From NCBI RefSeq assembly GCF_000014265.1, contig NC_008312.1, positions 5,430,001-5,462,000 of the forward strand: 32,000 nt of DNA, written 5' to 3'. Shown in pieces: positions 1-23,261 of the stretch. The position numbers and the translations under genes are program-made. The stretch is from Trichodesmium erythraeum IMS101 (GTDB lineage: Bacteria; Cyanobacteriota; Cyanobacteriia; Cyanobacteriales; Microcoleaceae). Numbering within the stretch: position 1 is the stretch's first letter; each line of letters begins with the position of its first letter. The notes under the pieces were generated by a model. That model did not search any database. It worked only from the letters and a program-made list of their open reading frames with translations, and was not told the origin of the DNA.

Positions 1-2135
1 CTGAGTACCAATACCAAAAAAATCGGCAACTTCAAGATTTTATTAAAATAGTAAATATGCAAATAGCTAATAGTAACAAAGAATTTAAAACCTGGCTATT
101 TAAACAACAAAAAAAAGTCCAAATTGAACTATCTCAATATAATCGAGAAACCCAATATTTGAACGCAGCATATCAACGGGAAATTGCCCTAGAAATCAAA
201 GAATTAGAAAACTGGCCGCTCAAAAATTATCCCTGGCAAATACTCCAATATCATCAAGACAGAAATCCTATTCCTATACAAATAATACTTGCACCTCCAG
301 AGGTAAATTATGATCGTTTTCAGAGTATCAATTCAACTTCTAAACCAGAATTTCCTCAAGTAGAAAAACGTCTTTCTCAATACTTAAAAAACTTCCTACA
401 AAAATATTATCCTGTAGAAAACCAACAAAGACCAACGGAGCTAATAGACCATGCTTGGGAGAGTAATCGTTTTGCTGGAGGTAGCGCGGTAAAAACTATA
501 TTTAGTCGGTTAAAGTCGGAACCAATAGTATTAATAGAATCAGAAGTAGATGGAGGATTTATTAATATTCAACTTGCCTATTGGAGTGGTGGGCAAGAAG
601 TTTCTCCTTTCTACAAAACTATAATTTCTCATTTGCATTATCCGAAAATTATCTATGCATTTGCTATTCAACGTGCCTTACATTGGGAAGCAAATGTTAA
701 ACAGAAACTCCTGGCACAAGGGGTAAATGAACAAGAAATAGATCAAGAATATGGAGGAGATAATCTGTTAAATTTGCAGATTTACAGAAAATATGAACAA
801 GACAAACTAGCTGGAATAGAGTTTGAACGTCAATACAAAACTAATCAGGAGGATTTTGACAAGTTATCAGCTTTGTTGGGAGCATATCATAATATTATTG
901 TTGCTCTATTTACTGATATCCATTACTTAATTCATACTAATTTATCACCTAAATTGCCAGAGTTATTGGCAGAGCTAGAAACAGAGTTTTCGGTGGATAA
1001 ACGTCTGGGAGAAGACTTATTTAAAATGGTGGTTGAAAGTTATATTGGCAGTCTCAGAGCGATGGAACAAGACCGCTCTGAGTTAGTACCAGAATTTGCT
1101 GTTGATATTGCTCTTGGTTTGGCTCGTTTATCTAATCCTATTTGGGCAGAACAAATGTTAGATTTTGCTTTAGAGTCTTGGCTAAATTCCCGCTATCTTT
1201 TCCCTAAGAACGGCAAAGAAAAATTTGATCTAGTTACTGAAAATTTACTACCTCTGGATCAGGAATTTATGACTAAAGTTAATCGCTGCATGGTTGATTT
1301 GGCTGAAGATAAAAAGGAGAGCCTATCTGATAATGTTACTAACAGCATTACTGAAGTTCCTATTCTGGAAATTCCCCCGAAAGCCCTGGAACTTCCTAGC
1401 CAAAAAATTGAAGACTTGGGCAATGGTATTGAGTTGGAAATGATTTATGTTCCTGGGGGAAGTTTTCTAATGGGATCGCCGAAAGATGAAGAGGCAAGAA
1501 ATTCTAATGAAAGTCCACAACATGAAGTAATTCTTCAAGCCTTTTATATGAGTAAATATCCTATTACTCAAAATCAGTATCAAGCTATTATGGGAAATAA
1601 TCCTTCTAGTTTTGAAGGAGAAAGTCGTCCAGTAGAATATGTGAACTGGTATGATGCTACGGAGTTTTGTCAAAAACTATCATCAAAAACTGGGGACGTT
1701 TATGTGCTGCCGAGTGAGAGTCAGTGGGAATATGCCTGTCGTGCTGGTACAGTTACTCCTTTCTATTTTCAAGATACTATAACGTCTGAGTTAGTTAACT
1801 ATAATGCTAACCATCCTTATGGCGATGCTCCTAAAGGAGAATATCGGCAAGAAACAACTGATGTAGGAATTTTTCCACCTAATGCATTTGGTTTATACGA
1901 TATGCACGGCAATATCTCGGAATGGTGTCAGGATGTTTGGCATAATAGTTACAAGGGAGCGCCTATCGACGGAAGTGCTTGGGAAAGTGGGCGAAGCAAT
2001 AGTTATCGACTGCTCCGTGGTGGTAACTGGTCTGACGGTTCTAGGTATTGCCGGAGTGCTGGGCGTGTTTATGCCCATGCCGATATCCGTAGTAATGGTA
2101 AGGGTTTTCGAATTATCTTGTCGCTCAAAAGTTAA
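1..2135 (+). CDS. Large multidomain protein, 5'-truncated by the window edge: Gln-rich coiled coil, unrecognised central domain, C-terminal FGE-sulfatase (SUMF1/C-type-lectin fold) domain. Paralogue of 7935..10724.
   Basis: The frame of the 57..2135 ORF stays open back to base 3 (..EYQYQKNRQLQDFIKIVNMQIA). That stretch aligns with VEYQCQENRKLQEFIKAVDMQIA inside the paralogue, so the true start lies upstream of the window. The C-terminal ~250 aa carry FGE-sulfatase hallmarks: MIYVPGGSFLMGS, PQHEV, YMSKYPITQNQY, NWYDATEFC, LPSESQWEYACRAG, FGLYDMHGNISEWC, LRGGNW, CRSAGR, GFR. Confidence 0.85.
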   Translation, partial: EYQYQKNRQLQDFIKIVNMQIANSNKEFKTWLFKQQKKVQIELSQYNRETQYLNAAYQREIALEIKELENWPLKNYPWQILQYHQDRNPIPIQIILAPPEVNYDRFQSINSTSKPEFPQVEKRLSQYLKNFLQKYYPVENQQRPTELIDHAWESNRFAGGSAVKTIFSRLKSEPIVLIESEVDGGFINIQLAYWSGGQEVSPFYKTIISHLHYPKIIYAFAIQRALHWEANVKQKLLAQGVNEQEIDQEYGGDNLLNLQIYRKYEQDKLAGIEFERQYKTNQEDFDKLSALLGAYHNIIVALFTDIHYLIHTNLSPKLPELLAELETEFSVDKRLGEDLFKMVVESYIGSLRAMEQDRSELVPEFAVDIALGLARLSNPIWAEQMLDFALESWLNSRYLFPKNGKEKFDLVTENLLPLDQEFMTKVNRCMVDLAEDKKESLSDNVTNSITEVPILEIPPKALELPSQKIEDLGNGIELEMIYVPGGSFLMGSPKDEEARNSNESPQHEVILQAFYMSKYPITQNQYQAIMGNNPSSFEGESRPVEYVNWYDATEFCQKLSSKTGDVYVLPSESQWEYACRAGTVTPFYFQDTITSELVNYNANHPYGDAPKGEYRQETTDVGIFPPNAFGLYDMHGNISEWCQDVWHNSYKGAPIDGSAWESGRSNSYRLLRGGNWSDGSRYCRSAGRVYAHADIRSNGKGFRIILSLKS
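2010..2135 (+). other. Putative DGR variable region (VR) at the 3' end of the FGE-sulfatase domain
   Basis: The peptide LLRGGNW-SDGSRY-CRSAGR-VYAHADIRSNGK-GFRIILSLKS keeps the invariant scaffold (RGGxW, CRSAxR, GFR) around positions mostly encoded by NNY codons (tct gac ggt tct .. tat .. gct .. cgt gtt tat gcc cat gcc gat atc cgt agt aat ggt). By hand count A is about 24 of 126 nt, well below the surrounding A-rich coding sequence. The scarcity of A opens alternative-frame ORFs here (1882..2142 +, 1893..2078 -). Confidence 0.5.
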
Positions 2136-2785
2136 AAGTTAAGTAGGTTTAACTTTTCAGGGGTGTAAAGTTTCTGTTAAGAGATGATGTGGGCATTGGA
2201 GCTAACTCATGAGAAAGAGATAGTAAGGCTATTTAATTCTAAAGTTTTGCGATCGCTATTACTACGGAAGTTGAAGGCAGTTTGCTGTCTTTTTTTTCTG
2301 AGTTTGAGTGTCTCATCTTAAATAAAAATTGAGCTATGGCTTATTATGAAAAGCTTTTAGATATTTAACCAGATTAGGGATGGGGTTAAGTGCCCTAGTT
2401 AAGGGAATGAAAGAAGTAGATTTCAGTTATAGGTTTTAGGCAAGTATATTATGTATAGTACTAAGTAATATAGGTGATCGCATATCTAAGAGTGGGCGAT
2501 CGCTTCAAATTTATAGCATAATTAAATTTGCCTAAAAACAGTTGATTTATTAGCACAAATTACTTTTAAGATTCAGGGTAATTTTAATTTTTTGTGTTTT
2601 TTTTCACTCCTGCAATTTCTTGATTCACAAGTTGATTAATAGTTTTTTCAAGATATTTTTTTATTTATATTATAGCACTTTTCATAAGTATAAACCACAT
2701 AGTAATATTATTTATCAATTTTTTTTTACATTTTCTTTAGCTAGGAACTATGATTCTTTAAAATAATGTAATTTTAATTGTTAAT

Positions 2786-3997
2786 TTAGGTCATAATTGC
2801 TTGTTCTCTAGCTAATTTAAATTTTGGCAATGCTTGAGTAAGCATATCTTTATTTGCTGTCAAAGATATCCGAAAATAACCAGGAATTTCTTGGGGAGTT
2901 CCTGGCAAAACAAATACTCCATAGTTAGTTAATAATTCGGCAAAAGCACAGTCATCTTTATAAGGAGATTTTACTAATAAGAAGAAGGTTCCCTGTGGTA
3001 CGTTTACTTCATATCCAATTTTCTGTAATTCTTGAATTATCCAATCCCTTTTATCTTGTAAATGTTTAATATTTAGTTTTAAATTTTCCAAATCTTCTAA
3101 GGCATATTGCATTAGGGCACTAGGAAAACACCAACCAAAATATAAGGTTTGTAATCGACCAATTAAATTTCTGATCTGTTCACGTTCTGGCATAGTTTCA
3201 GGAAGAGCAATATAACCTATTCTTTGACCAGGAGCTATCCAAGTCTTGCTATAACTATATACTAAAAAAGAAAGGGGATAAAATTGTGTCGGACTCGGGC
3301 AATTTTGATGATTAAAAACAACACGACTAAATGTTTCATCAGAAATTAAATAAATTGGTTTGCCATAATTTTTAGAAGCTTCAGTTAATAAATTACCTAA
3401 ATTCTCTAATGTTTTTTCAGATAATATTTTACCTGTTGGATTATGAGGGGAATTAATTAGAATAGCGCGAGTTCTTTCTGTAATAGAATTTGCGATTTTT
3501 TCTAGGTCTAAATCAAAGGTTTTAGCCATGACTGGAATGCCCACAGATTTAGCACCTACTGCATTAATCATTCCGCGATAGCCTAACCAGGGAGGAAGAT
3601 TAATAATCACTTCATCCCCTTCTTGAACTAATAGTTTTAAACATATTGCTAAACCGATAACTGTACCATTTGTCATAAAAATATCATCAGGTAAAATAGA
3701 TATTCCTCTATGTTTTTTTAGTGCCTGAGAGACAATTTTTCTAGTTTCAGGTAAATTCATTTTATAGCCATAATACCCTATTTTACTCGCTATTGCATTC
3801 TTTTGTAAAGCTTCAACAAATCCAGGTAAAGGCATTTCATGAGAATCTCCCAAAATTAAATTAATATTACCTGCTTCGTTTATTCGACTCATATAAGTTG
3901 CTGTTCTATAGAATTTGCTCATTGGTGTTTCATGTTCTATTGTTTTGAGTAATTTAGGTGCAATAAAATGGGATTTTGATTGTTTTTGTTTGTTCAT
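2786..3997 (-). CDS. Pyridoxal-phosphate-dependent aminotransferase, class I/II
   Basis: 403-aa ORF with an ATG start. It has the class I aminotransferase motifs NSPHNPTGK and YSYSKT (PLP lysine) and the overall fold-type I length. Confidence 0.85.
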   Translation of the reverse strand: MNKQKQSKSHFIAPKLLKTIEHETPMSKFYRTATYMSRINEAGNINLILGDSHEMPLPGFVEALQKNAIASKIGYYGYKMNLPETRKIVSQALKKHRGISILPDDIFMTNGTVIGLAICLKLLVQEGDEVIINLPPWLGYRGMINAVGAKSVGIPVMAKTFDLDLEKIANSITERTRAILINSPHNPTGKILSEKTLENLGNLLTEASKNYGKPIYLISDETFSRVVFNHQNCPSPTQFYPLSFLVYSYSKTWIAPGQRIGYIALPETMPEREQIRNLIGRLQTLYFGWCFPSALMQYALEDLENLKLNIKHLQDKRDWIIQELQKIGYEVNVPQGTFFLLVKSPYKDDCAFAELLTNYGVFVLPGTPQEIPGYFRISLTANKDMLTQALPKFKLAREQAIMT

Positions 3998-4322
3998 TTT
4001 GAAGTAGATAAAAATTAATTACAATAGAATTAAATGGTTGAAAGTAGATATGATTACTATACCTATTTATTCCTAGATCTTGATGATTTAAATATTAAAG
4101 CGTTTACAGATAAAGTTAAATGCATTGTTGGAGTGAAAAAAAGTACAATCCTTTGAATGATAATGACTAAAAAATCAGGATTTTTTGCAGAATAATTGTT
4201 AAAAAGTTAAGGGCAAATATATCTGAATATTTCTTTTATAATTCCCTGTTCCTTTTAACTTCTAATTTTTTTTTAATCTCTACCTCCTAAAAATATTTTT
4301 TTAGTTATCCCTAAATATTATA

Positions 4323-5174
4323 TCAAATGCTTTCTAAAAATTCTGCTACTTTCTGATTAAATTTTTCTGGTTCTACCAAAAATACCCAATGATTTCCAGG
4401 AATTTTTTCTATTTTTAATTTCCTTAAATATTTAGCATAAGGTTTCATTTGTCGATTGTTTTTATTGACGCCTTTTTCTGGTTGAATAAATAAGGTTGGT
4501 ACATCAATATATTCTGTTAAACCAGGAACTTTCATCACTTCCTCAAAAATTTCATTCCTAGCAGAAATAACAAATTTACTTCCCCACTTTCCATTAGTTT
4601 TTTTCTCAAGACTTTCCCGAAAAACTATCTGTTGAATTTTACTCCAACCCCTATACTTTCCTAACTCTTTTGCCTGAGTTTCTGCCTCAGTAAAACTATT
4701 AAATGGACCCATGCCTTTAAGAGTTTCTAAGGTTCTATAAAGAATAGGAAAAGTAACTTTAAGTAATCCAGGCATTTTCCCAATAAAAACTGGGTCTACT
4801 AAAATCATACTTTTAAATATTTCTGGATTTTTTTTTGCCCAAATACAAGCTAATTTTCCTGTCCAAGAATGACCTAAAATATTAGCTGAGGACCAGTTTA
4901 AATTCTCCATTAATGCTTCTAAATCGGTAATTGTTTTCTCAAAACTATAACCACTTTCTGGTTTTCCACTTTCTCCATGACCGCGCATATCTGGGGCAAC
5001 AATATGATATTTATCTGCTAAATATTCTCCTAAGTTTAGCCAGACTAAAGCTGAATCTGCTAAACCATGTAATAATAAAAGTGGTTGTTTTTTATCCTGA
5101 TTTTCTTTTGGCTGCCATTCTAGATAAGAGAGTTGAATCTCGGATAAATTTAATTTTTTACGAGTATAAACCAT
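4323..5174 (-). CDS. Alpha/beta-fold hydrolase
   Basis: LLLLHGLADS (HG oxyanion motif), a nucleophile elbow ILGHSWTG, and a C-terminal GNHW catalytic-His region. The track starts at a TTG (5180), but an ATG two codons downstream (5174) is the more likely start. Confidence 0.8.
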   Translation of the reverse strand: MVYTRKKLNLSEIQLSYLEWQPKENQDKKQPLLLLHGLADSALVWLNLGEYLADKYHIVAPDMRGHGESGKPESGYSFEKTITDLEALMENLNWSSANILGHSWTGKLACIWAKKNPEIFKSMILVDPVFIGKMPGLLKVTFPILYRTLETLKGMGPFNSFTEAETQAKELGKYRGWSKIQQIVFRESLEKKTNGKWGSKFVISARNEIFEEVMKVPGLTEYIDVPTLFIQPEKGVNKNNRQMKPYAKYLRKLKIEKIPGNHWVFLVEPEKFNQKVAEFLESI

Positions 5175-5760
5175 AATCAAATATGAGGATTAAATATTTA
5201 GCAAGATAATATTATAGCAAATTTATTACTTCTTTAGCTCTGGTATTTGGCTTGCTTTTATCTGATTGAGATTAAATTTGCTATATAATATAAATATTAT
5301 TTTAGGGTTTAATTAAAAAAACAGTTGATTCGATTATTTGTTTTGTTTTATGGTGGTATTAGTAACAATTATAGTCTCTTTTATGAGGATTTTTTTCTCT
5401 ACTTCGGATGGTTAAATAAATATTTAAACCATGATTTTAGTGATAGTTTATATCGGCAATAGCAATTCTCATATCAAAATTTAAGTATTGTTTTAAGGGA
5501 AGGTTTAAACTTTTATAAAATCATTTTTTATTGCATATTTTTGCAAATTAATATGGCAGTTTTAGTAAAAATTATGGATTCTAAAAAATAGTAGTTTTTG
5601 CTCATAAAAAATGAGATAATCAATACTTTATTACAGGTTTTTATAAAGTAAATTCTGATTTTTTCTTACCATAAATTTATAATTTTTAGCATATATAAAA
5701 TAATTTTTTCTTAAGTTATTATACTTTTGAGAGTTAAAATATAGGTCTATTTAGTCATTT

Positions 5761-7676
5761 TTAGCCTAGCTTACTTTCTCAAGCTGTCAAATTTTTTGAG
5801 GCTTTTTTTTTACCGATAAAAAATTTCTCATCAGCTCTGAAATTATTAGAAAAATAGAGGTTGAGTCTGACAGCTTTAGCCAAGCTCACTTTCTGAAGCA
5901 CTCTAAATTTATGAGACTTTTTTGAACCGACAAAAAATTGCTCATCAGTCAAATTTGGAAACTCCAATAATTTCTCAAATTATTAGAAAAATAGAGGTTG
6001 AGTCTGACAGCTTTAGCCAAGCTCACTTTCTGAAGCACTCTAAATTTATGAGACTTTTCTGAACCGACAAAAAATTTCTCGTCAGCTCTGAAATTATTAG
6101 AAAAATATAGGTTGAGTCTGACAACTGGAGCCGAGCTCACTTTCTGAAGCACTCTAAATTTCTAAGACTTTTTTGAAGCGACAAAAAATTTCCATCAGCT
6201 ATGAAATTATTAGAAAAATAGAGGTTGAGTCTGACAGCTTTAGCCAAGCTCACTTTCTGAAGCACTCTAAATTTATGAGACTTTCTTGAACTGACAAAAA
6301 ATTGCTCATCAGTCAAATTTGGAAACTCCAATAATTTCTCAAATTATTAGAAAAATATAGGTTGAGTCTGACAACTGGAGCCGAGCTCACTTTCTGAAGC
6401 ACTCTAAATTTCTAAGACTTTTTTGAAGCGACAAAAAATTTTCCATCAGCTATGAAATTATTAGAAAAATAGAGGTTGAGTCTGACAACTTTAGCCAAGC
6501 TCACTTTCTGAAGCACTCTAAATTTATGAGACTTTTTTTAACCGACAAAAAATTGCTCATCAGTCAAATTTGGAAACTCCAATAATTTCTCAAATTATTA
6601 GAAAAATATAGGTTGAGTCTGACAACTTTAGCCAAGCTCACTTTCTGAAGCACTCTAAATTTATGAGACTTTTCTAAACCGACAAAAAATTTCTCGTCAG
6701 CTCTGAAATTATTAGAAAAATAGAGGTTGAGTCTGACAGCTTTAGCCAAGCTCACTTTCTGAAGCACTCTAAATTTATGAGACTTTTCTAAACCGACAAA
6801 AAATTTCTCGTCAGCTCTGAAATTATTAGAAAAATAGAGGTTGAGTATGACAGCTTTAGCCAAGCTCACTTTCTGAAGCACTCTAAATTTATGAGACTTT
6901 TTTGAACCGACAAAAAATTGCTCATCAGTCAAATTTGGAAACTCCAATAATTTCTCAAATTATTAGAAAAATAGAGGTTGAGTCTGACAGCTTTAGCCAA
7001 GCTCACTTTCTGAAGCACTCTAAATTTATGAGACTTTTCTAAACCGACAAAAAATTTCTCGTCAGCTCTGAAATTATTAGAAAAATAGAGGTTGAGTCTG
7101 ACAACTTTAGCCAAGCTCACTTTCTGAAGCACTCTAAATTTATAAGACTTTCTTGAACCGACAAAAAATTTCTCGTCAGCTCTGAAATTATTAGAAAAAT
7201 AGAGGTTGAGTCTGACAGCTTTAGCCAAGCTCACTTTCTGAAGCACTCCAAATTTATGAGACTTTTCTGAACCGACAAAAAATTTCTCGTCAGCTCTGAA
7301 ATTATTAGAAAAATAGAGGTTGAGTCTGACAGCTTTAGCCAAGCTCACTTTCTGAAGCACTCCAAATTTATGAGACTTTTCTAAACCGACAAAAAATTTC
7401 TCGTCAGCTCTGAAATTATTAGAAAAATAGAGGTTGAGTCTGACAGCTTTAGCCAAGCTCACTTTCTGAAGCACTCCAAATTTATGAGACTTTTCTGAAC
7501 CGACAAAAAATTTCTCGTCAGCTCTGAAATTATTAGAAAAATAGAGGTTGAGTCTGACAACTTTAGCCGAGCTCACTTTCTGAAGCACTCTAAATTTCTA
7601 AGACTTTTTTTAACTGACAAAAAATTTCTCGTCAGCTCTGAAATTATTAGATAATTTAGGTTGAGTCTCATAACTT
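5761..7676. repeat. Tandem array of 16 units: 114-bp basic unit, with 137/138-bp long variants as units 2, 5, 7 and 10. The first and last units are degenerate.
   Basis: I hand-mapped unit starts (TTAGCC/GGAGCC) at 5761, 5876, 6013, 6127, 6239, 6377, 6491, 6628, 6742, 6856, 6993, 7107, 7221, 7335, 7449 and 7563. The consensus unit is ttagccaagctcactttctgaagcactctaaatttatgagacttttctgaaccgacaaaaaatttctcgtcagctctgaaattattagaaaaatagaggttgagtctgacagc. Long variants replace tttctcgtcagctctgaaattatt with ttgctcatcagtcaaatttggaaactccaataatttctcaaattatt. Confidence 0.95.
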
Positions 7677-7934
7677 AAGTAGAGCTTATCCCCCATAGAA
7701 AAATACAATTCCTTGAAGAAAAATATCAATAATAATCAAACTCATAATAAAATATAACTTAGGTTTAGTTTCAGAACCTTAGAGAAGCTTATCCCCTAGG
7801 TCAACTTAACATTTAGATCAGATTTACATCTAATCTAATCATAGATAATTTAAGTTAGGTTTATAAAGGAAAACCCTGGCTTATTAAACTTTTTGAGCAT
7901 ACAAAAAATTTATAATTATCACAAGGAAAAAATT

Positions 7935-10724
7935 ATGCCTATACCTTTACTTCCATTGCTTGCTCCCGCCGCAGCTTCAGCATGGAATGGAGTAGTTAAT
8001 GCCTTTAATGGTGCCTCCGGTAGAACAATGCAACAAAATTTAGAAGGGCAACGACTAGCTCATCAAAAAGAATTACAAGAAAAACAAATAGTCGCTCAAT
8101 TTGAGATTGAATATATGCGTACAATGTCTCAGATAAAGTTGCAGCAGAATAATCAACAATTTCAACAAAAACTAGAAATTGCCCGTCAAGAATTTCAAGG
8201 AAAAATAGTTGAATACCAATGCCAAGAAAATCGGAAACTTCAAGAATTTATTAAAGCCGTAGATATGCAAATAGCTAAAAGTAACCAAGAATTTCAAACC
8301 TGGTTATTTCAACAACAAAAACAACTTCAAATTGAATCAGCTCAATATAACCGAGAAACCCAATATCTCAACGCGGTATATCAACGAGAAACTACCCTAG
8401 AAATTAAAGAATTAGATAACTGGCCTCTGAAAAATTATTCTTGGCAAATACTCCAATATCATCAAGGTCGCGACCCCATTCCTGTACAAATAATACTAGC
8501 ACCTCCAGAAATAGACTTTGACCGTTTTGAACATCTAAATAAAACTTCAACTTCCACATTTCCTAAAGTGGAAAAACGCCTTTCTCAACACTTACGAAAC
8601 TTCTTAGAAAAACACTATCCCCTAGAAAACCAACAACGACCCACAGAACTAATAGACCATACTTGGGATAGTAACCGTTTTGCCGGAGGTAGCGCAGTTA
8701 AAACTATATTTAGTCGCTTAAAATCTGAACCAATACTATTAATAGAATCAGAAGTAGATGGAGATTTAATTAATATCAAAGTTGCCTATTGGAGTGGGGG
8801 ACAAGAAATATCTCCCTTCTACAAAACCATAATTTCTCAGCTACATTATCCGAAAGTTCTCTATGAATTTGCTATTCAACGTGCCTTACATTGGGAAACT
8901 AATGTTAAACAAAAACTCTTAGCAAGAGGTAAAACTGAACAAGAGATAAATCAAAAATTTGCTGGAGATAATGCTTTAAATTTAAGTATTTATAGAGAAG
9001 ATAAAGAGCTACAAGCGGAAGGAATAGAATTTGAAATAGCCTACAAAACCAATAGCAAAGACTTTGGTAAATTATCAGCTTTGTTAGGAGCATATCATAA
9101 TGTTATTGCTGCCCTATTTACTGATATTCATTATTTAATTAATACTAATTTATCGCCGAAGTTGCCAGAATTATTGGCAGAGTTGGAAACAGAATTTTCT
9201 ATAGAAAAATGTCTGGCAGATGACCTATTTCAAATGGTAGTTGAAAGTTATATTGGTAGTCTCAAAGCAATGGAACAAGACCGCTCCGAATTAGTACCAG
9301 GATTTGCTGCGGATATTGCTTTTGGTTTGACTGGTTTATCTAATTCTAATTTGGCAGAAAAAATGTTAGATTTTTGCTTCGAGTCTTGGCTAAGTTCTCG
9401 TTATCTTTCTGTGGAGAATGGTAAGGAAAAATTTGATATGGTGGCTAAAAATTTACTGCCTCTGGATCAGGAATTTATAGGTAAAGTTAATCGCTGTTTG
9501 GTTGGTCTGGGTCAGCAGAAAAAATTGAGTTTGATAAATTCTTGTTACCTCCGGGGAATTGATAAATTTAATCTCGAAAAATATGAGGAAGCAATTATTG
9601 ATTTTGGCTATGTTATAAGTTTAAATCCTAAATTTGCTGATGGTTATTATCGGCGAGGTTTGGCTTATATTCAGTTGGAAAATTATGGAGATGCGGTTGA
9701 TGATTTGACTCAGGTTATTAGGTTAGATCCTAGTCACGCTGTGGCATTTAATTATCGGGGTTATGCTTACTATAAATTAGGTGAATATCAATGGGCAGTT
9801 GATGATTATAACCGGGCGATAAATTTGGGTTTGACTGAGGCGGTGAAAAATCGAGATATTGTTCTGGGTGTTTGGGAAGAAATTAAAAGGCAGCAGGAGT
9901 CGAAAGGGGATCTCTTTACTTTCGAGGTAATTACTGTTAACAATACTGGCAAAGTTATTAGTTCTAACCAGGGAAGTGCTAGGCAAAAATTTGAAGACTT
10001 GGGTAGTGGAATTAAATTAGAAATGGTTTATATTCCTGGGGGAAGTTTTCTCATGGGGTCGGCGGGAAATGAGGGGAGCAGAAGATCTAATGAAGGTCCC
10101 CAACATGAAGTAACTCTCCAACCTTTTTATATGAGCAAATATCCTATTACTCAAGACCAGTACCAAGCCATTATGGGAAATAACCCTTCGTATTTTAAGG
10201 GAGGAAGCCGTCCAGTAGAACAAGTAAACTGGCACAATGCTACAGAGTTTTGCCAAAAGCTATCATCAAAAATTGGGAAAATTTACAGGCTACCCAGCGA
10301 GAGTCAGTGGGAATACGCCTGCCGTGCCGGGACTACTACTCCTTTTTATTTTGGAGAAACTATAACCTCTGAGTTAGTTAACTACCGTGGTGACCATTCT
10401 TATGGCAATGCTCCTAAAGGAATATATCGGGGAGAAACAACAGATGTGGGAAGTTTTCCTCCTAATGCCTTTGGTATATATGATATGCACGGGAATGTTT
10501 GGGAATGGTGTGCTGATGATGGGCATGAAAACTATAATGGTGCGCCTACAGACGGCAGTGTTTGGCTAGATGGAGAAAAAAATGGATCACCGCTGCGGGG
10601 CGGTTCTTGGTACTTCATTCCTAATTATTGCCGTTCTGCGGTTCGCGACTACTATTTTAGGCGCGACGACCCCTACTACTTTATTGGTTTTCGTCTTGTC
10701 TGCGATGGCGGGAGAACTCTTTAA
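7935..10724 (+). CDS. Large multidomain protein: hydrophobic N-terminus, Gln-rich coiled coil, unrecognised central domain, three TPR repeats, C-terminal FGE-sulfatase (C-type-lectin fold) domain
   Basis: The track ORF starts at a TTG (7893). The ATG at 7935 is preceded by aagga 7 nt upstream and by a TATAAT at 7911..7916, so 7935 is preferred. TPR-like repeats: YEEAIIDFGYVISLNPKFADGYYRRGLAY, YGDAVDDLTQVIRLDPSHAVAFNYRGYAY, YQWAVDDYNRAINLG. FGE-sulfatase motifs: MVYIPGGSFLMGS, PQHEV, YMSKYPITQDQY, NWHNATEFC, LPSESQWEYACRAG, FGIYDMHGNVWEWC, LRGGSW, CRSAVR, GFRLV. Confidence 0.85.
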   Translation: MPIPLLPLLAPAAASAWNGVVNAFNGASGRTMQQNLEGQRLAHQKELQEKQIVAQFEIEYMRTMSQIKLQQNNQQFQQKLEIARQEFQGKIVEYQCQENRKLQEFIKAVDMQIAKSNQEFQTWLFQQQKQLQIESAQYNRETQYLNAVYQRETTLEIKELDNWPLKNYSWQILQYHQGRDPIPVQIILAPPEIDFDRFEHLNKTSTSTFPKVEKRLSQHLRNFLEKHYPLENQQRPTELIDHTWDSNRFAGGSAVKTIFSRLKSEPILLIESEVDGDLINIKVAYWSGGQEISPFYKTIISQLHYPKVLYEFAIQRALHWETNVKQKLLARGKTEQEINQKFAGDNALNLSIYREDKELQAEGIEFEIAYKTNSKDFGKLSALLGAYHNVIAALFTDIHYLINTNLSPKLPELLAELETEFSIEKCLADDLFQMVVESYIGSLKAMEQDRSELVPGFAADIAFGLTGLSNSNLAEKMLDFCFESWLSSRYLSVENGKEKFDMVAKNLLPLDQEFIGKVNRCLVGLGQQKKLSLINSCYLRGIDKFNLEKYEEAIIDFGYVISLNPKFADGYYRRGLAYIQLENYGDAVDDLTQVIRLDPSHAVAFNYRGYAYYKLGEYQWAVDDYNRAINLGLTEAVKNRDIVLGVWEEIKRQQESKGDLFTFEVITVNNTGKVISSNQGSARQKFEDLGSGIKLEMVYIPGGSFLMGSAGNEGSRRSNEGPQHEVTLQPFYMSKYPITQDQYQAIMGNNPSYFKGGSRPVEQVNWHNATEFCQKLSSKIGKIYRLPSESQWEYACRAGTTTPFYFGETITSELVNYRGDHSYGNAPKGIYRGETTDVGSFPPNAFGIYDMHGNVWEWCADDGHENYNGAPTDGSVWLDGEKNGSPLRGGSWYFIPNYCRSAVRDYYFRRDDPYYFIGFRLVCDGGRTL
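10593..10724 (+). other. Putative DGR variable region (VR) at the 3' end of the FGE-sulfatase domain
   Basis: The peptide LRGGSW-YFIPNY-CRSAVR-DYYFRRDDPYYFI-GFRLVCDGGRTL has variable positions that are almost all NNY codons (tac ttc att cct aat tat .. gtt .. gac tac tat ttt .. gac gac ccc tac tac ttt att). That is the pattern expected if AAY template codons were adenine-mutagenised. By hand count A is about 20 of 132 nt, against clearly higher A in the ~150 nt just upstream. An alternative-frame ORF (10570..10776) opens because stop codons need A. Confidence 0.55.
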
Positions 10725-11001
10725 CCCTCTTATCTTTTACCCTTTTGCCCTTTGCCCTGTTTTTCTTTTCCCTTGAGGTTCCCGCTTTAGCGGGTCGAAA
10801 TTTTTTTGAGATTTAGGGTTTTTATGGTTTTGGCCATAGGTGAGTTGAAGAATGAAAACCCACATTAGCTATCTATATATATAGATATAAACTTCTGACT
10901 TCCTCGCACTAAGTCAAAAAAAATCAAGCGATCGCCTAAACAGATAACCATCAAAAAATAACATTCTCTGAAGACCAAAAAAAAGAGAAATGTGGTTAGT
11001 A

Positions 11002-11030
11002 TTGCATTGATAAATTAACTATGGTAGAGT
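11002..11030 (+). promoter_or_regulatory. Promoter-like element in repeat module B1 (TTGCAT-N17-TAGAGT)
   Basis: The -35 TTGCAT is at 11002..11007, followed by an exact 17-nt spacer and the -10 TAGAGT at 11025..11030. A 7-bp stem hairpin (ataaggg/cccttat, 11037..11058) sits at the predicted transcript 5' end. Confidence 0.35.
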
Positions 11031-11321
11031 TATGTCATAAGGGTAAGCTCGCCCTTATACTAGACTTTTTATTCAACATAGAAAAGATGCAGAAAATAAT
11101 TCAAGAAAATGTTGGCGATCGCTTCAATTTCAGGAAAGTATCAAATAACATTTTCTAAAGCTCTAAAAAAAAGAGAAGCCGTAGATTAAGTCGAAAAATC
11201 AAACCTAAAATTAGCCGTTCATATAAAAGAAGCAAAATTCATCGTTAATGTCTAGAAAAAAGTTGGAGCGATCGCCCCTCAACATTTTCTGAAGCACCAA
11301 AAAAAAGAGGTGTGGTTAGTA

Positions 11322-11350
11322 TTGCATTGATAAATCAACTATGGTAGAAT
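11322..11350 (+). promoter_or_regulatory. Promoter-like element in repeat module B2 (TTGCAT-N17-TAGAAT)
   Basis: It has the same architecture as B1, with the -10 being TAGAAT at 11345..11350. The spacer length is conserved. Confidence 0.35.
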
Positions 11351-11776
11351 TATGTCATAAGGGTAAGCTCGCCCTTACACTAGACTTTTTATTCAACATA
11401 GAAAAGATGTAGAAAATAATTCAAGAAAACGTTGGCGATCGCTTGAACAGACAAGCATCAAATAACATTTTCTGAAGCTCTAAAAAAAAGAGAAGCCGCA
11501 GATTAAGTGGAAAAATAAAACCTAAAATTAGCCGTTCATATAAAAGAAGCAAAACTCATCGTTAATGTCTAGAAAAAAATTTGGAGCGATCGCCCCTCAA
11601 CATTTTCTGAAGCTCTTGAAAAAAGAGAAGTAGTAAATGAAGTTGGAAGATAAAACCTAACACTAGCCGTTGATATAAAGAGGGAAAATTTAATTCTTCA
11701 TGGCTGCAAAAAAAAATTGAAGCGATCGCCCCTCAACATTTTCTGAAGCTCTTAAAAAAAAACAGTCAGATTAGTG

Positions 11777-11805
11777 TTGCATTGATAAATTAACTATGGT
11801 AGAGT
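11777..11805 (+). promoter_or_regulatory. Promoter-like element in repeat module B3 (TTGCAT-N17-TAGAGT)
   Basis: The -35 is at 11777..11782 and the -10 at 11800..11805, separated by a 17-nt spacer. Confidence 0.35.
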
Positions 11806-12086
11806 TATGTTATTGATGCTAACTCGCCCTCATACTAGACTTTTTATTCAACACAAAACAGGCCAAAAAGTAGAAAATAATTCAAGAAAATGTTGGCGAT
11901 CGCTTCAATTTCAGGAAAGTATCAAACAACATTTTCTGAAGCTCTTGAGAGACTGAAGTTGAAAAATCAAACCTAATATTAGCCGTTGAGATAAAGGGGG
12001 AGAATTTAATTCTTCATAACTACAAAAAAGCGATCGCCTCTCAACATTTTCTGGAGCTCTTGAAAAAGAAAGCAGTAGGATTAGTG

Positions 12087-12115
12087 TTGAATTGATAAAT
12101 AAACTATGATATAGT
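12087..12115 (+). promoter_or_regulatory. Promoter-like element in terminal module B4 (TTGAAT-N17-TATAGT); candidate recQ promoter
   Basis: The -35 is at 12087..12092 and the -10 at 12110..12115, on the same strand as the recQ ATG (12199) and ~85 nt upstream of it. The intervening leader keeps the module hairpin remnant (taagg..cctta) and a T-run. Confidence 0.4.
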
Positions 12116-12198
12116 TATGTTATAAGGATTAGCTCGCCCTTAGACTAGATTTTTTATTCAACACAGAAAAGTAAAAAGTCAAACGATACGAAAACAGA

Positions 12199-13665
12199 AT
12201 GAAAAACTCAGAAGAAACATCGTGGAATAAAATCAAAGAAACATTTAAAAAAATCTGGGGATACGATAACTTCCGACCTCCACAAGAAGAAATAATAAAC
12301 TGCTTATTAACAGGAAAAGACGCCCTAATAATAATGCCCACAGGAGGAGGAAAATCAATATGCTTTCAACTTCCAGCGCTCCTAAAAAAAGGATTAACAT
12401 TAGTTATTTCTCCCCTAGTTGCCCTAATGGAAAACCAAGTAGAAGAACTAAGCGATCGCTCCCTACCCGCCAGCCTACTCCACAGCCAACTTACCCGAGA
12501 AAAAAAACGACAAACCCTCGAAAAAATAGAACAAAATCAACTTAGGCTACTCTACCTTTCCCCAGAAACATTATTCAACCAAAAAATATGGAACCTACTA
12601 TCGAAAAGCCAAACAAAAATCAACGGTTTAATATTAGATGAAGCCCACTGCTTAGTAGAATGGGGAGAAACATTTCGTCCCTCCTATAGACGTCTAGGAG
12701 CAGTCAGACAAACACTAATAAAATCAAAACCACCAGGAACAAAAATTAGCGTTGCAGCCTTCACAGCCACAGCCGATCCTCAAGCACAAAAAATCATCAA
12801 AACCGCCCTACAACTAAGAAACCCAAAAACATATTTAATCAGCCCCTATCGAAATAATTTACAACTAAAAATTCAACATATTTGTACTTCCAGAAGTCGC
12901 TATCAACAACTACTTAAATTTATCAAAACCAGAGAAAAACAATCAGGCATAGTTTATGTAAGAACAAGAAAAGACAGTGAAAAACTAGCAGAAACATTAC
13001 GAGAAAAAAATTATCAAACCACAAGTTATCATGCAGGTTTAAGAGCAGAAGAAAGACGACATATTGAAAAAGCTTGGATCAAAGGAGAAATCAACTTTGT
13101 AGTGTGTACTTCCGCCTTTGGAATGGGAATAAATAAACCAGATGTGAGATGGGTAATACACTTTCAAGCGCCATCATTATTATCAGAATATATTCAAGAA
13201 ATTGGAAGAGGAGGTAGAGACGGAAAACCAGCAGAAGCCTTAACCCTAATTAGCGAACCAACTGGTTGGTTAGACCCAGAAGATAAACAAAGACAAAAGT
13301 TTTTAGCAGATAAATTAAAACTAGAATATCAAAGAGCAGAAAAATTAATTAAGCAACTACCAACCAGAGGAAATATTAATCTTTTAAAAGATGAATATCC
13401 CCATGCAGCAAACGCCCTATCTATTCTACATTCTTCCGGCAAATTAAGATGGTACGACCCATTTAACTATGTTATGATTAATAATAGTAAAAAAGTATCT
13501 CTAAACTACAACTCAAAAGTTAAAGATCTAAATAAATATTTTGCCACCAGGAAATGTCGATGGCAATTTTTACTAGAAGTATTTGGTTTTTCTCAAGAAG
13601 CTCAGAATATAGGTTATATGGGTTGTGGTCATTGTGATAATTGTCTTAAAAAAAGAAAAAAGTGA
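12199..13665 (+). CDS. recQ: ATP-dependent DNA helicase RecQ, short form ending at the zinc-binding subdomain
   Basis: It has RecQ N-terminal motifs (FGYDNFRPPQEEII, MPTGGGKS Walker A, LDEAHCLVEWG DEAH box, TATA, VYVRTRK, YHAGL, AFGMGINKPDVRWVIH, QEIGRGGRDG). The C-terminal CRW..LL..FG..GCGHCDNC matches the RecQ Zn-finger. Confidence 0.9.
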   Translation: MKNSEETSWNKIKETFKKIWGYDNFRPPQEEIINCLLTGKDALIIMPTGGGKSICFQLPALLKKGLTLVISPLVALMENQVEELSDRSLPASLLHSQLTREKKRQTLEKIEQNQLRLLYLSPETLFNQKIWNLLSKSQTKINGLILDEAHCLVEWGETFRPSYRRLGAVRQTLIKSKPPGTKISVAAFTATADPQAQKIIKTALQLRNPKTYLISPYRNNLQLKIQHICTSRSRYQQLLKFIKTREKQSGIVYVRTRKDSEKLAETLREKNYQTTSYHAGLRAEERRHIEKAWIKGEINFVVCTSAFGMGINKPDVRWVIHFQAPSLLSEYIQEIGRGGRDGKPAEALTLISEPTGWLDPEDKQRQKFLADKLKLEYQRAEKLIKQLPTRGNINLLKDEYPHAANALSILHSSGKLRWYDPFNYVMINNSKKVSLNYNSKVKDLNKYFATRKCRWQFLLEVFGFSQEAQNIGYMGCGHCDNCLKKRKK

Positions 13666-17887: not shown

Positions 17888-18973
17888 ATGGTATTTAGTC
17901 TTAATTTTCGTCAGATAATTTGTAATACTTCTAAATTCTCTGCAGTAGCCTTAACCATTGGTCTAGTTACTACAATTGCTGGAGTTAAGTACAGTCTCGC
18001 TAAACAAAGAGTCAACCTTATAGGTGCAGGTGCATCTTTTCCAGCTCCACTATACCAACGTTGGTTTAGTGATATGAGAAATAATAATTTTGAGGTTCAA
18101 GTAGATTATCAATCAGTTGGTAGTGGTGCTGGTGTTGAAAGATTTACTCAAGGACTAGTAGATTTCGGTGCTTCTGATGTGGCAATGAAAGATAGTGAAA
18201 TAGCCAAGGTCTCTCGAGGAGTTATGATGCTGCCCATGACTGCAGGTAGTGTTGTATTGGCTTACAATTTACCAGGTATATCCGACCTGAAGTTATCCAG
18301 GAAAGTTTATGTAGATATCCTTTTGGGTAGGATTAAGAATTGGAATGACTCAGAAATTGCTACTATTAATTCCGGTGTAAATTTGCCAGATCTACCAATT
18401 ACCGTAGTTTATCGTTCCGATGGTAGTGGAACTACAGGAGTGTTTACAAAGCATCTAAATTCTATTAGTCAGGAGTGGAAAAAGAAAGTAGGAGAAGGTA
18501 AAACTGTTCAGTGGCCTGTAGGCATAGGTGGCCAAAAAAATGATGGCGTAAGTGCTTTAATTCGTCAAACAAAAGGTGCTATAGGTTACGTAGAGTTTGG
18601 TTTTGCTAAAAATGCTAAACTTAATACTGCAGCTTTAGAGAATAAATCTGGTAATTATATTAAGGCTTCTTTAGAGTCTGCTAAGTCTACTCTAGCAGCA
18701 GTAAAATTACCTAAAAATCTCCGTGCTTTTATTAGTGACCCAGAAGGTAGTAATTCTTATCCTATTGTTACTTATACTTGGATGCTAATTTATAATCAAT
18801 ATAATGATGCAGCTAAAGCTCAGGGTATAGAAAAAATGATTGAATATGGATTAAATGAAGGGCAAAAGGTAAGTGCTGATTTAGGTTATATTCCACTACC
18901 TAACAATGTTCGTCAAACAGTTGCGGCAGCTGCAGATAAAATCAGCTCTAGCCATCAAATTAGCCTTAAGTAA
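17888..18973 (+). CDS. pstS: Phosphate ABC transporter substrate-binding protein, upstream paralogue (possibly the SphX-type copy); no lipobox
   Basis: It has PstS-family motifs (GAGASFPAPLYQRW, YQSVGSGAG, FGASD, RSDGSGTT, GAIGYVE). By eye it is roughly three-quarters identical to the 20918..21994 copy. The N-terminus has a hydrophobic segment but no Cys lipobox. Confidence 0.9.
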   Translation: MVFSLNFRQIICNTSKFSAVALTIGLVTTIAGVKYSLAKQRVNLIGAGASFPAPLYQRWFSDMRNNNFEVQVDYQSVGSGAGVERFTQGLVDFGASDVAMKDSEIAKVSRGVMMLPMTAGSVVLAYNLPGISDLKLSRKVYVDILLGRIKNWNDSEIATINSGVNLPDLPITVVYRSDGSGTTGVFTKHLNSISQEWKKKVGEGKTVQWPVGIGGQKNDGVSALIRQTKGAIGYVEFGFAKNAKLNTAALENKSGNYIKASLESAKSTLAAVKLPKNLRAFISDPEGSNSYPIVTYTWMLIYNQYNDAAKAQGIEKMIEYGLNEGQKVSADLGYIPLPNNVRQTVAAAADKISSSHQISLK

Positions 18974-19072: not shown

Positions 19073-20448
19073 CGGGACTTTAGCAAATTTCAAGCCCAAA
19101 CAAACCCTAAACTCTCTTTATGAGCGGTAAATACGTCGATGTTTTCATCTAACCACTCAACAAAACGATAAGATATTGCGGTACGAAATGCTTCTAAAGT
19201 ATCAGTAAACGTATTTAATGGTTTGTTAGCCCAACGCCTTCTTATACCTCCTGTTAACTGATGCCAGATAATAAATGTATAAGCACAAAATACTAAAATA
19301 AAATGCCTTTTAAGGCTGATTTTATCTCTGACTTGATATTCTCTTAATCCTAACCATCCTTTGGCTTCCCTGTAGAAAACTTCCACCCAATTTCTTTGAG
19401 AATAAGTAGAATATATCCACTCAGGAGTTACATATTTGTCTTCTCTATTAGTGATATAATAGTTAATATCAGTGGCCTCAGAAAAACTTTTAGCATTCAT
19501 AACGATAGCTATAGTTTTTTGACCTGACATCCTAGATATTTCTACTTCTAATGTAGCTACCCAAACTTCTCTAGCATTTTTTGTACTTAGTTGAACTAAG
19601 TTGAAAGCTTTCTGAGGTATACTTTCTGCCAGCTTGTCTAATCTAATTTCCTCTTTAATGTCATCTTGTTTTTTAATGATGACTTTTCGATTTTTAGCTA
19701 ATCCTCCTATATAAGTTAAACTTCTTTTCTCTAGTTGATTTAAGAATGATGTATTGTTACCATAGCCAAATTTCAATTAACACAATTTCTGGTTGGTGTC
19801 CTCTGGACAAACATTGATCTACTAGAGACATTGCACTCGTCTGGTTTCTTGACAAATTCTGGGTCTTTTTTTCCTTTTGGAAAAGAATCAGCTTTCTGAT
19901 ACAAAGCTATGTCTAAAGGTAGACTTTTAACTCCATCATAAAGATGAGTTGTCACCACGACTACACCATTATCTGTTTTTCCTATTTCTCCTATATATTG
20001 CCGCCCTACTCCTGCAGTAAAATTACCACTTTTTCTGTGGCCTGAATCGTCTATAATTAAAGCAATAGGATCGAGAAGGTTTTGTTTGGCGACGTTCCCA
20101 CATTACTTGAAGACGACGCTCATTCACAGCATCTACAGACCAATTTGCTCGAACTAGAAAATGCCGTAATTTGTGGTACGTGTGACCTACAGTGTTGTTG
20201 GCAATTTGAGACAAGTTTTTTCGATCGCTTTCTCAAGAGTAATCCTCCTATATATTCCCTAAACCCTGTTTTTTGGGCTTTTGTTTTAAAGACATTGTTA
20301 AAGCGATCGCACCATCGATGGAAACAAGAGGGCATGGCCACTGAAGTTGTTTCTTTCATCAAACTTTTCCCAGGCCAGTAATTAACGTAAAATACATATC
20401 AGGTATACATTATACCCTTTTTTTTACTATTTTTTCACTAAAGTCCCG
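19073..20448 (-). mobile_element. Decayed IS701-family (IS4 superfamily) insertion sequence, ~1.38 kb
   Basis: The terminal inverted repeats have the core CGGGACTTTAG (19073..19083) and its complement CTAAAGTCCCG (20438..20448). Both ends are flanked by TTAT (19069..19072 and 20449..20452), a possible 4-bp target duplication. The interior encodes a fragmented DDE transposase. Confidence 0.8.
19090..20362 (-). pseudogene. IS701-like DDE transposase disrupted by at least three frameshifts
   Basis: The homologous reading frame is split over ORFs 20120..20362, 20023..20214, about 20070..19773 and 19090..19776. IS701/DDE_5 hallmarks are present: IIDDSGHRKSGNFTAGVGRQYIGEIGKTDNGVVVVTTHL, and NWVEVFYREAKGWLGL (catalytic E with K seven residues later). 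Confidence 0.8.
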
Positions 20449-23191: not shown

Positions 23192-23261
23192 TGGGAATTA
23201 ATTATCCTATTTGATTTATATATAACCAACAATTTTTATGCTAATATTATCTTAATTCATT

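Follow-up and report, generated by a model that had tools for sequence, protein, structure and literature searches.

[quoted passage not shown] Trichodesmium ranks among the major nitrogen fixers of the ocean, and the target set of its diversity-generating retroelements (DGRs) is, to our knowledge, the largest known within one genome. Exact protein look-up identified both genes in IMS101, gene 1 as ABG52613.1 and gene 2 as ABG52617.1, which is Tery_3529. Gene 1 (1..2135) makes up the C-terminal 711 codons of ABG52613.1/WP_011612955.1, based on its translation, an exact-sequence cluster look-up and full-length orthologues; its locus tag is probably Tery_3525. An earlier reading of this DNA from its letters alone (the sequence-only reading) drew attention to both genes. 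Position 57 is not the start of gene 1, as full-length orthologues show: the ORF enters from upstream, beginning ~273 nt before the window, and the full protein has 802 aa. Gene 2 (7935..10724; ABG52617.1/WP_011612959.1, 929 aa) was defined by translation, Pfam, exact look-up and Table S2 of PMC8867640, whose coordinates for it also place the window on CP000393.

The two genes had been described as paralogues of the FGE-sulfatase type, and this description is borne out. In their common N-terminal and FGE regions, three repeat blocks of 300 nt are 81–86% identical at the nucleotide level, and each gene matches Pfam FGE-sulfatase (PF03781) with E ∼4e-52. In gene 1, the match spans residues 461–687 of the 692 encoded by the 57..2135 ORF. 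In gene 2, the FGE-sulfatase/C-type-lectin-fold domain (10020..10700; PF03781, E = 4e-52) extends to residue 936 of 943, i.e. to the 3' end of the ORF. Gene 1 consists of an N-terminal module without known match followed by the FGE/CLec domain. Gene 2 has the same module, then TPR repeats, found in this gene only (9570..9821; TPR_1, TPR_2, TPR_11 and TPR_16; residues ∼560–643 of the ORF starting at 7893), and then the FGE/CLec domain. Among PDB sequences, PvdO (5hha) and TvpA, the variable protein of a DGR (2y3c, E = 3e-25), match the FGE domain of gene 2. Searches of Pfam, NCBIfam, PADLOC and PDB sequences with the N-terminal module returned no match, and its AlphaFold model, a confident one (pLDDT 78.8, pTM 0.82), matched no fold in the PDB significantly (best E = 0.12). 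In both proteins, a common ∼530-residue module is joined to a ligand-binding FGE/C-type-lectin domain at the C-terminus.

Translations confirm that both C-termini carry the scaffold RGG(N/S)W..CRSAxR..GFR, and alignment of the paralogues confirms that the tails are nearly unalike between the fixed residues. The tails are also poor in A: 2010..2135 has 19.0% and 10593..10724 has 15.2%, while the remainder of either gene has 34%. Among the windows of their genes, they take ranks 14 of 652 and 5 of 887, respectively, for low A. NNY codons are in excess (76% and 84%, versus 51% gene-wide), and each segment is overlapped by an ORF in an alternative frame (1882..2142 and 10570..10776, respectively), as had been noted. 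The sequence-only reading took both segments to be variable regions (VRs) of a trans-acting DGR encoded elsewhere, with composition and codon pattern as the discriminating evidence. This proposal stands for 10593..10724, a live VR, and falls for 2010..2135, which is frozen; A depletion and NNY codons alone failed to separate the live from the dead VR. It is also correct that the window holds neither RT nor template: Pfam searches of all larger ORFs found no RT, no template-like copy of either segment was found within the window when mismatches were permitted at adenines alone, and an Rfam scan of the window gave no RNA families.

DGRs of this organism are well documented. Pfreundt et al. (2014, PMC4143802) described the Trichodesmium TR RNA and 12 targets, and Table S1 of Paul & Eren (2022, PMC8867640) gives the sequences of two templates, TR1 and TR2, together with the RT genes Tery_1035 and Tery_1728. 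The Tery_1728/1729 RT is a pseudogene in IMS101, Tery_1035 being the other reported RT (PMC4143802, PMC8867640). In Table S2 of the 2022 study, Tery_3529 (5437934-5440724, +) appears among the remote targets, with the entry 'hypervariable: yes' and homology to TR2. It is one of 18 remote loci given there for IMS101, trans-served and with a C-terminal DUF323/FGE domain (PMC8867640). Tery_3529 apparently lies outside the 12 TR-matched VRs of 2014, which are not all named there and were otherwise matched by accession numbering (PMC4143802), and the 2020 study (Vallota-Eastman et al., PMC7517822) calls it no more than a 'paralogue'. Its identification here as a hypervariable remote target is a re-discovery, already published. 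Gene 1 appears in none of the 2014, 2020 and 2022 target lists (PMC4143802, PMC7517822, PMC8867640).

The VR-like segment of gene 1 (2012..2122) is identical in 14 orthologues of the T. erythraeum clade, among which 33 other columns vary. A second clade has one other tail sequence, uniform in 11 orthologues. Between IMS101 and a wild contig (L129), 5 differences are seen in the 2135 nt of gene 1, none of them in the tail. The excess variability that the sequence-only reading proposed to look for in these codons is absent, and the tail of gene 1 is not an active DGR target.

Comparison of this tail with the published TR1 suggests what it may once have been. Ungapped identity is 69%, length and codon register are the same, and the shared sequence includes TGCCGGAGTGC and GGTTTTCGA. 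Changes over 99 nt affect 16 of the 29 A sites and 15 of the 70 other sites, which places 52% of the mismatches at A; the rates of change, 55% at A sites versus 21% at non-A sites, are significantly different (P = 0.0017). Nine of the 15 non-A changes fall at third codon positions. Homology to TR1 on the 3' side, which homing requires, is absent beyond GGTTTTCGA.T.ATC, ending ∼17 nt after GGTTTTCGA. Based on this decayed match, the tail is probably a fossil TR1-type VR, a claim less certain than that it is not an active one. It is possible, though on balance doubtful, that gene 1 was never a DGR target, its C-terminus being simply an ordinary one for a paralogue of the FGE family. Its tail is as conserved as the rest of the protein, the scaffold motif occurs also in non-DGR enzymes (PvdO, FGE), and the A-site excess might come about just because surface codons evolve faster, as in any FGE paralogue. 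However, an ordinary C-terminus would have to share the length, register and identity of TR1 and its bias toward A sites, and close paralogues and orthologues of gene 1 in Okeania and other Trichodesmium have clearly diversified TR1-type tails.

The tail of gene 2, here termed VR2, was delimited in the sequence-only reading as a scaffold-bearing, A-poor and NNY-rich segment at 10593..10724. At least 12 alleles of it, counted at the protein level, occur in wild and cultured Trichodesmium on near-identical flanks. Allele comparison places a hypervariable core of 77 nt, with ∼18 rewritten codons, at 10611..10687; the codon at 10695..10697, outside this core, also varies (CTT, GTT or ATT). In pairwise comparisons of six alleles, divergence was 18–32% in the core versus 0.6–3.5% in the rest of the gene, with P values from 5e-10 to 2.5e-24. 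IMS101 and the wild contig L129 differ at 21 positions of the core. Differences fall almost entirely at the first two codon positions, one example pair showing 11, 10 and 0 at positions 1, 2 and 3. Across nine VR2-family sequences, 26 columns contain at least three bases, distributed 13/12/1 over the codon positions, so that 25 of 26 lie at position 1 or 2. All four bases are present at the variable columns, and A is the modal base (94/234 in the nine sequences); at third positions and in the codons between, no variation is seen. For gene 2, then, the predicted concentration of polymorphism in the tail codons is found. VR2 is a genuine variable region of a DGR; it is served in trans and is hypervariable in nature. 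Direct observations of the present analysis are its hypervariability, the confinement of this variability to the first two codon positions, and a conserved cis flank.

All IMS101-derived copies carry a single VR2 allele, which is shared by a MAG from the Great Barrier Reef (P0049). Activity of VR2 in IMS101 itself would therefore be presumptive, and the RT of DGR2 has been reported as a pseudogene in this strain (PMC4143802). In one pair of alleles (P0002 and P0100), differences are limited to the 3'-most variable codons, as a partial homing event would give. Some of the alleles could be old variants reshuffled by recombination. Collectively, the two genes show that a shortage of A, an abundance of NNY codons and the scaffold CRSAxR/GFR outlast the retirement of a VR and do not tell a live target from a fossil, whereas population variation separates the two cleanly.

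The 3' end of VR2 (GGTTTTCGTCTTGTCTGCGATGGCGGGAGAACTCTTTAA, 10686..10724), aligned across alleles and paralogues, is invariant and represents a candidate homing or priming homology that may be likened to an IMH. Seven orthologous alleles and two unrelated Trichodesmium sp. MAG_R03 target genes have it in identical form, except for two lineage-variable bases. It is followed by a pyrimidine-rich 3' UTR tract (10725..10780), common to target genes of the VR2 family, and by a conserved hairpin, CCCGC-TTTA-GCGGG (10781..10794), 57 nt after the stop codon. In all, ∼130 nt comprising the VR end and the 3' UTR with its hairpin are common to gene 2 and unrelated target genes of another Trichodesmium species. 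Folded as DNA, the hairpin has a centroid energy of –5.5 kcal/mol (z = –2.4 in a 46-nt context), and at the equivalent position the paralogue L038 has CCGCC-TAAA-GGCGG, i.e. two compensatory pair swaps. Alternatively, the hairpin may belong to a terminator; a simple terminator scan made no call here, with the T-run starting 6 nt past the stem.

VR2 is closer to TR2 than to TR1, and TR1 belongs with another VR family by sequence comparison. One possibility is that the published TR2, the template of DGR2, is the source of VR2 diversity and that there is no further template. This is the assignment in Table S2 of Paul & Eren (2022), and there is something to be said for it: ungapped identity over 100 nt is 65%, GGTTTTCGTCTTGT matches exactly, and VR2 has changed at 17 of the 26 A sites of TR2. 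But 18 of 74 non-A sites differ as well, and only 49% of the mismatches are at A, compared to at least 80% at TR adenines by the usual TR/VR criterion. Thirteen columns are invariant in all nine VR2-family members, from at least three lineages, yet unlike TR2, the template assigned to Tery_3529 in 2022 (PMC8867640), and each homing event from TR2 would reset these bases. Four hypervariable VR2 columns sit where TR2 is not A; codons 5 and 6 of VR2 vary as NNT, where TR2 reads AGG AGG; and after GGTTTTCGTCTTGT the gene 2 flank diverges from TR2 and is unrelated beyond. VRs of the TR2 type form a separate family (e.g. P0315, P0316 and P0354). A near-repeat of VR2 with mismatches almost only at adenines was found in neither TR1 nor TR2. 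These data make TR2 an improbable donor. Given the misfit, with 49% of mismatches at A and 13 differing fixed bases, we infer from the allele comparisons that the template feeding VR2 is a third one, neither TR1 nor TR2, which is absent from the literature lists. The misfit itself seems to be unpublished.

It is reasonably likely that Tery_3529 is one member of a third VR family, a large one spread over Trichodesmium and Okeania, for which TR1 and TR2 are not the donors and a predicted, unannotated template is. Members of this family have the protein pattern W-xxxPxx-CRSAxR-xxxx-(R/G/W)R-DxHxxxx-GFR(L/V/I)VCDGGRTL, followed by the conserved 3' UTR with its hairpin, and the carriers include kinases, membrane-anchored lectins and TPR proteins. 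Of the 18 published loci, Tery_2689, 2415, 2228 and 2158 probably have tails of this CDGGRTL type. The predicted donor, which may lie away from any RT gene, would read CTGCGGGGCGGTTCTTGG AAC AAC AAT CCT AAT AAT TGC CGY TCT GCG ATT CGC AAC AAC TAT AAT AGG CGC GAC GAC CAC AAC AAC AAT AAT GGT TTT CGY ATT GTC TGC GAT GGC GGG AGA ACT CTT TAA. If such a template exists, either one RT serves at least two templates or there is a third DGR. The discrepancy with TR2 bears on how the assignment of templates and RTs to targets is modelled, and it yields a concrete sequence to search for.

Several collections were searched. An unspecific 18-base VR pattern gave at least 116 loci in the genome collection, and among the matches listed were the two target genes of Trichodesmium sp. 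MAG_R03 (L038 and L104). The metagenome scan, in which the pattern had CGT fixed at one codon whereas the non-erythraeum alleles L132–L135 have CGC, returned only an unrelated cyanobacterial VR (L123). No match to the VR, its flank or the predicted template was found in the viral collection. A search for RT homologues seeded with the RT of another cyanobacterial DGR listed 120 RTs, none of them named Trichodesmium. No adjoining RT/TR was found for five lectin paralogues, the contigs obtained being either short or carrying a group II intron RT.

Two further explanations can be set aside. It is very improbable that VR2 diversity arose without a retroelement, by positive selection and recombination among paralogous lectin tails: many similarly tailed paralogues could act as donors, and some orthologue clusters do contain tails of different families (e.g. 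P0251 versus P0354), but VR2 varies only at positions 1 and 2 of particular codons with A commonest, a signature of adenine mutagenesis, and its divergence is ∼30-fold above that of the rest of the gene. The proposal that both tails are live VRs of one trans-acting DGR fits their shared scaffold, low A and NNY excess, and IMS101 does hold DGRs with many remote targets, yet it is hardly tenable given that the gene 1 tail is invariant in 25 orthologues of two clades and that the tails, which have no common 3' flank, differ at many bases fixed within each family. Since these non-variable differences place the tails in different VR families, they cannot have one template, and the single shared template of the sequence-only reading is ruled out.

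We favour, with a probability of roughly 0.85, the reading that Tery_3529 is a remote DGR target served in trans, presumably via a third template, and that the gene 1 tail is a retired VR of the TR1 type. In the mechanism we propose, a template RNA encoded elsewhere in the genome would be reverse-transcribed with random misincorporation opposite adenines, and the cDNA would replace ∼80–100 nt at the 3' end of Tery_3529. Some 18 codons, for which the inferred template has AAY, ATT, TAT, AGG, GAC and CAC, would be rewritten; these are predicted to line the binding surface of the lectin fold. The invariant 3' end of VR2, possibly along with the downstream hairpin, would be kept as cis-acting signals. 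Gene 1, by the same account, would have kept the scaffold and a residual adenine-site bias from its retired VR, while drift at non-adenine and third-codon positions and loss of 3' homology would have left it with an ordinary conserved protein tail.

Parts of this arrangement are known from other systems. The trans-acting, multi-target DGRs of Thiohalocapsa PB-PSB1 (PMC10907252) likewise have many remote targets, diversification in natural populations and lectin domains on diverse N-terminal modules; in contrast to their targets, PADLOC, Pfam and NCBIfam find no STAND NTPase or conflict-system domain in the N-terminal module described here. TvpA of Treponema denticola (PDB 2Y3C) resembles Tery_3529 (E = 3e-25) in its FGE-type C-type-lectin fold with C-terminal variable residues, but it is a lipoprotein and the cis target of its own cassette, whereas Tery_3529 is remote and has a 690-residue chassis of N-terminal module plus TPR repeats. 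The Mtd/VR of Bordetella phage BPP-1, with its IMH, shares with VR2 an invariant GC-containing 3' end and a downstream stem-loop with a 4-nt loop. The hairpin of Tery_3529, a putative counterpart of that of BPP-1, has been kept through compensatory changes; it lies ∼95 nt from the last variable codon and has a 5-bp stem, compared to a few bases and 8 bp in BPP-1.

Translated from its ATG at 7935, gene 2 (7935..10724, + strand) gives a 929-aa product that exactly matches ABG52617.1/WP_011612959.1, i.e. Tery_3529 of Trichodesmium erythraeum IMS101. Paul & Eren 2022 (PMC8867640) place Tery_3529 at 5437934-5440724 (+), so the window corresponds to CP000393 5430001-5462000. Gene 1 (..2135, + strand) is cut by the window edge; exact protein look-up gives its full-length product as ABG52613.1/WP_011612955.1, a protein of 802 residues in which the ATG at 57 is internal. 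The sequence-only reading had proposed both C-terminal tails (2010..2135 and 10593..10724) as variable regions (VRs) of a trans-acting diversity-generating retroelement (DGR) encoded elsewhere, and the features it had described were reproduced. Both C-termini carry an FGE-sulfatase scaffold (Pfam E ∼4e-52; motif RGG(N/S)W..CRSAxR..GFR), with residues between the fixed positions that are unrelated in an alignment of the two genes. Adenine makes up 19.0% (gene 1) and 15.2% (gene 2) of the segments, compared to 34% elsewhere, and both rank among the most adenine-poor windows of their own gene. NNY codons are in excess (76% and 84%, versus 51% gene-wide), and alternative-frame ORFs run over the segments (1882..2142 and 10570..10776). 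A Pfam domain search of all larger ORFs in the window detected no reverse transcriptase (RT), and neither segment has a template-like copy within the 32,000 nt searched. The remaining window genes encode an aminotransferase, a hydrolase, a RecQ-like helicase, LspA, BioY, BioB, two PstS, PstCAB, DUF2854, CRR7 and a transposase fragment.

For gene 2, the proposal stands. Tery_3529 orthologues, drawn from cultures, wild MAGs and marine assemblies (Tara and others), are nearly identical up to ...SPLRGGSW and again from GFR(L/V)VCDGGRTL on, and at least 12 different tails lie between these flanks. Allele DNA was obtained for six further orthologues. In pairwise comparisons of 6 alleles, the core of the gene 2 variable region, VR2 (10611..10687, 77 nt), diverges by 18–32%, compared to 0.6–3.5% in the remaining 2713 nt (Fisher P from 5e-10 to 2.5e-24). 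The excess of polymorphism thus lies in the VR codons, with core differences at codon positions 1 and 2 (e.g. 11, 10 and 0 at positions 1, 2 and 3). Gene 2 is a DGR target, hypervariable in wild populations. When 7 orthologous alleles are compared together with two unrelated target genes from Trichodesmium sp. MAG_R03 (nine sequences), 26 columns contain three or four bases, at codon positions 13/12/1, the lone third-position column falling outside the core; the commonest base at these columns is A (94/234). Such a pattern is the product that would be expected of adenine-specific template mutagenesis. The template codons behind VR2 would be AAY, ATT, TAT, AGG, GAC and CAC; residues at AGG codons are R, G or W only, because NGG permits just these.

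Two alleles, P0002 and P0100, match throughout the first 14 variable codons; their differences are limited to the last four and the L/V codon that follows GFR, which fits replacement of only part of the tail, anchored on its 3' side. The allele of P0049, from the T. erythraeum GBRTRLIN201 MAG (Great Barrier Reef), is exactly that of the IMS101 culture, and the other wild contigs, unlike P0049, each carry a different one. Either diversification is episodic or the IMS101 lineage and this MAG are very closely related.

That gene 2 is a hypervariable remote DGR target is already in the literature. Paul & Eren 2022 (PMC8867640) include Tery_3529 among 18 remote loci ('hypervariable: yes', 'TR2') and print the template repeats TR1 and TR2. 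Vallota-Eastman et al. 2020 (PMC7517822) give ABG52617.1 as a lectin paralogue only, not as a remote variable protein, and ABG52613.1 is absent from their listing. Pfreundt et al. 2014 (PMC4143802) described 12 VRs, 26 adenines in 17 codons, and a TR RNA encoded downstream of the RT pseudogene Tery_1728/1729; exactly the same adenine count, in as many codons, holds for the printed TR2, which is therefore the template of Pfreundt et al. The sole potentially new element is that the VR family of Tery_3529 mismatches both published templates.

Over the first 100 nt, VR2 differs from TR2 at 17/26 A sites and 18/74 non-A sites; only 49% of mismatches fall at adenines, which is not the near-exclusive adenine mismatching of a template and its VR. 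Beyond GGTTTTCGTCTTGT the two are unrelated. Thirteen columns are fixed in 9/9 members of the VR2 family yet unlike TR2, and four hypervariable core columns coincide with non-A bases of TR2; for instance, TR2 has AGG AGG where the VR2 family shows NNT at codon 5 and (A/T)AT at codon 6. Because each homing from TR2 would reset the 13 fixed bases, the VR2 alleles were probably not generated from TR2. A separate family of tails is of TR2 type (W..YP(R/W)(R/W)CRSAxR..Y.SDE....GFRLVSFPP; proteins P0315, P0316 and P0354). Together with the misfit of VR2 to TR2, this points to a third template, of predicted sequence, that would feed the VR2 family. 'CDGGRTL' tails are also found in Trichodesmium and Okeania on kinases, on lectins with a membrane anchor and on small proteins consisting of a lectin domain alone. 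P0354 and P0251 (ABG53529.1, IMS101) belong to the same 90% cluster and have tails from different VR families (cf. L124, 800-930): P0354 has the TR2-type tail, ending in GFRLVSFPPRTPE, whereas GFRVVWNAGMEKYGKG closes the IMS101 copy, which suggests exchange of entire VR cassettes between families.

For gene 1, the proposed hypervariability did not hold. Its tail, SDGSRYCRSAGRVYAHADIRSNGK, is identical in 14 T. erythraeum-clade orthologues (including IMS101, strain 21-75, GBRTRLIN201, and ALOHA and St-series MAGs), and 33 columns outside it vary (ten distinct full-length sequences). Eleven members of a second clade have SDSSRYCRCAGRVYSHADIRNNSR in common, which differs from SDGSRYCRSAGRVYAHADIRSNGK at 5/24 residues and thus reflects ordinary divergence. 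Between IMS101 and a syntenic wild T. erythraeum contig (L129), gene 1 shows 5 differences in 2135 nt, with 0 in the tail; as an internal control, gene 2 of the same two genomes has 21 in the 77-nt core. Gene 1 is not a live DGR target. Its tail nevertheless equals TR1 in length and codon register, with 69% identity and TGCCGGAGTGC and GGTTTTCGA in common, and 55% of TR1 A sites are changed versus 21% of non-A sites (P = 0.0017). Clear diversification of TR1-type tails is seen in paralogues from Okeania and other Trichodesmium; an example is the gene directly downstream of the Tery_3529 orthologue in loci L132 and L133, where adenines account for 65% of the positions mismatched with TR1. In the gene 1 tail, 3' homology to TR1 is absent from the alignment past about 17 nt, and third codon positions account for 9/15 of the non-A changes. 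The best reading of these comparisons is that the tail is probably a retired TR1-type VR that drifted under purifying selection; a reasonable rival is that it never was a VR. As gene 1 shows, DGR compositional signatures outlive DGR activity.

The L132/L133 gene (4060-7023 and 3902-6865) encodes a 987-aa TPR-FGE paralogue of the P0005 type (second Trichodesmium clade), with a TR1-type tail 76% identical to IMS101 TR1 over 131 nt. At that position IMS101 instead carries repeats and a recQ-like gene.

Downstream of the VR2 core, the invariant end GGTTTTCGTCTTGTCTGCGATGGCGGGAGAACTCTTTAA is common to Tery_3529 and the unrelated target genes L038 and L104 of another Trichodesmium species, as are a pyrimidine-rich tract and a hairpin (CCCGC-TTTA-GCGGG, 10781..10794, + strand). 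The L038 equivalent at the same position is CCGCC-TAAA-GGCGG, i.e. two compensatory pair swaps in the stem. Phage BPP-1 has a homing element (IMH) followed by a stem-loop, an arrangement that the invariant VR end and putative cis hairpin of Tery_3529 resemble. The stem folds modestly (−5.5 kcal/mol, z about −2.4), and a terminator is a possible alternative. L104 (1819-4065, minus strand; Trichodesmium sp. MAG_R03) encodes two tandem FGE domains. The VR2-type tail, followed by the conserved 3' UTR and hairpin, is restricted to the C-terminal one; CRSAFR..GFRVVC is retained in the internal domain, which has no flank of this kind.

The two proteins share a conserved N-terminal region of ∼530 residues (7935-9554 in gene 2, 1-1400 in gene 1), for which searches of Pfam, NCBIfam, PADLOC and PDB sequences gave no hit. 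AlphaFold confidently models this region (pLDDT 78.8, pTM 0.82, 26 homologues) as an alpha/beta core surrounded by long helices, for which Foldseek found no significant fold match in the PDB. More distant homologues have a C-terminal WD40, DUF1566 or no lectin domain. In other cyanobacteria the module is fused to WD40, DUF1566 or TPR, replacing or adding to the lectin domain. These varied partners would fit a shared module to which different binding domains can be attached.

A tandem array of ∼16 copies of a 114/137-nt unit (5736-7700), without an Rfam match, lies between the hydrolase gene and Tery_3529 and contains spurious minus-strand ORFs (6564..6947 and 6929..7588). In L129, flanks 97.6–97.9% identical on both sides enclose only ∼4 copies plus ∼1.1 kb of extra DNA; thus, copy number differs between strains. 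A second intergenic repeat cluster (10979-12212; units ∼317 and ∼135 nt) lies downstream of Tery_3529. Each unit contains the GCGATCGC (HIP1) palindrome, forming a GGGGCGATCGC(T/C)CC hairpin followed on the minus strand by a T-run, which looks like a terminator. Two pstS-like phosphate-binding genes (17888-18973 and 20918-21994; 76% nucleotide identity over 300 nt) flank a DDE transposase fragment (19090-19776), with pstC, pstA and pstB (22205-25338) downstream of both.
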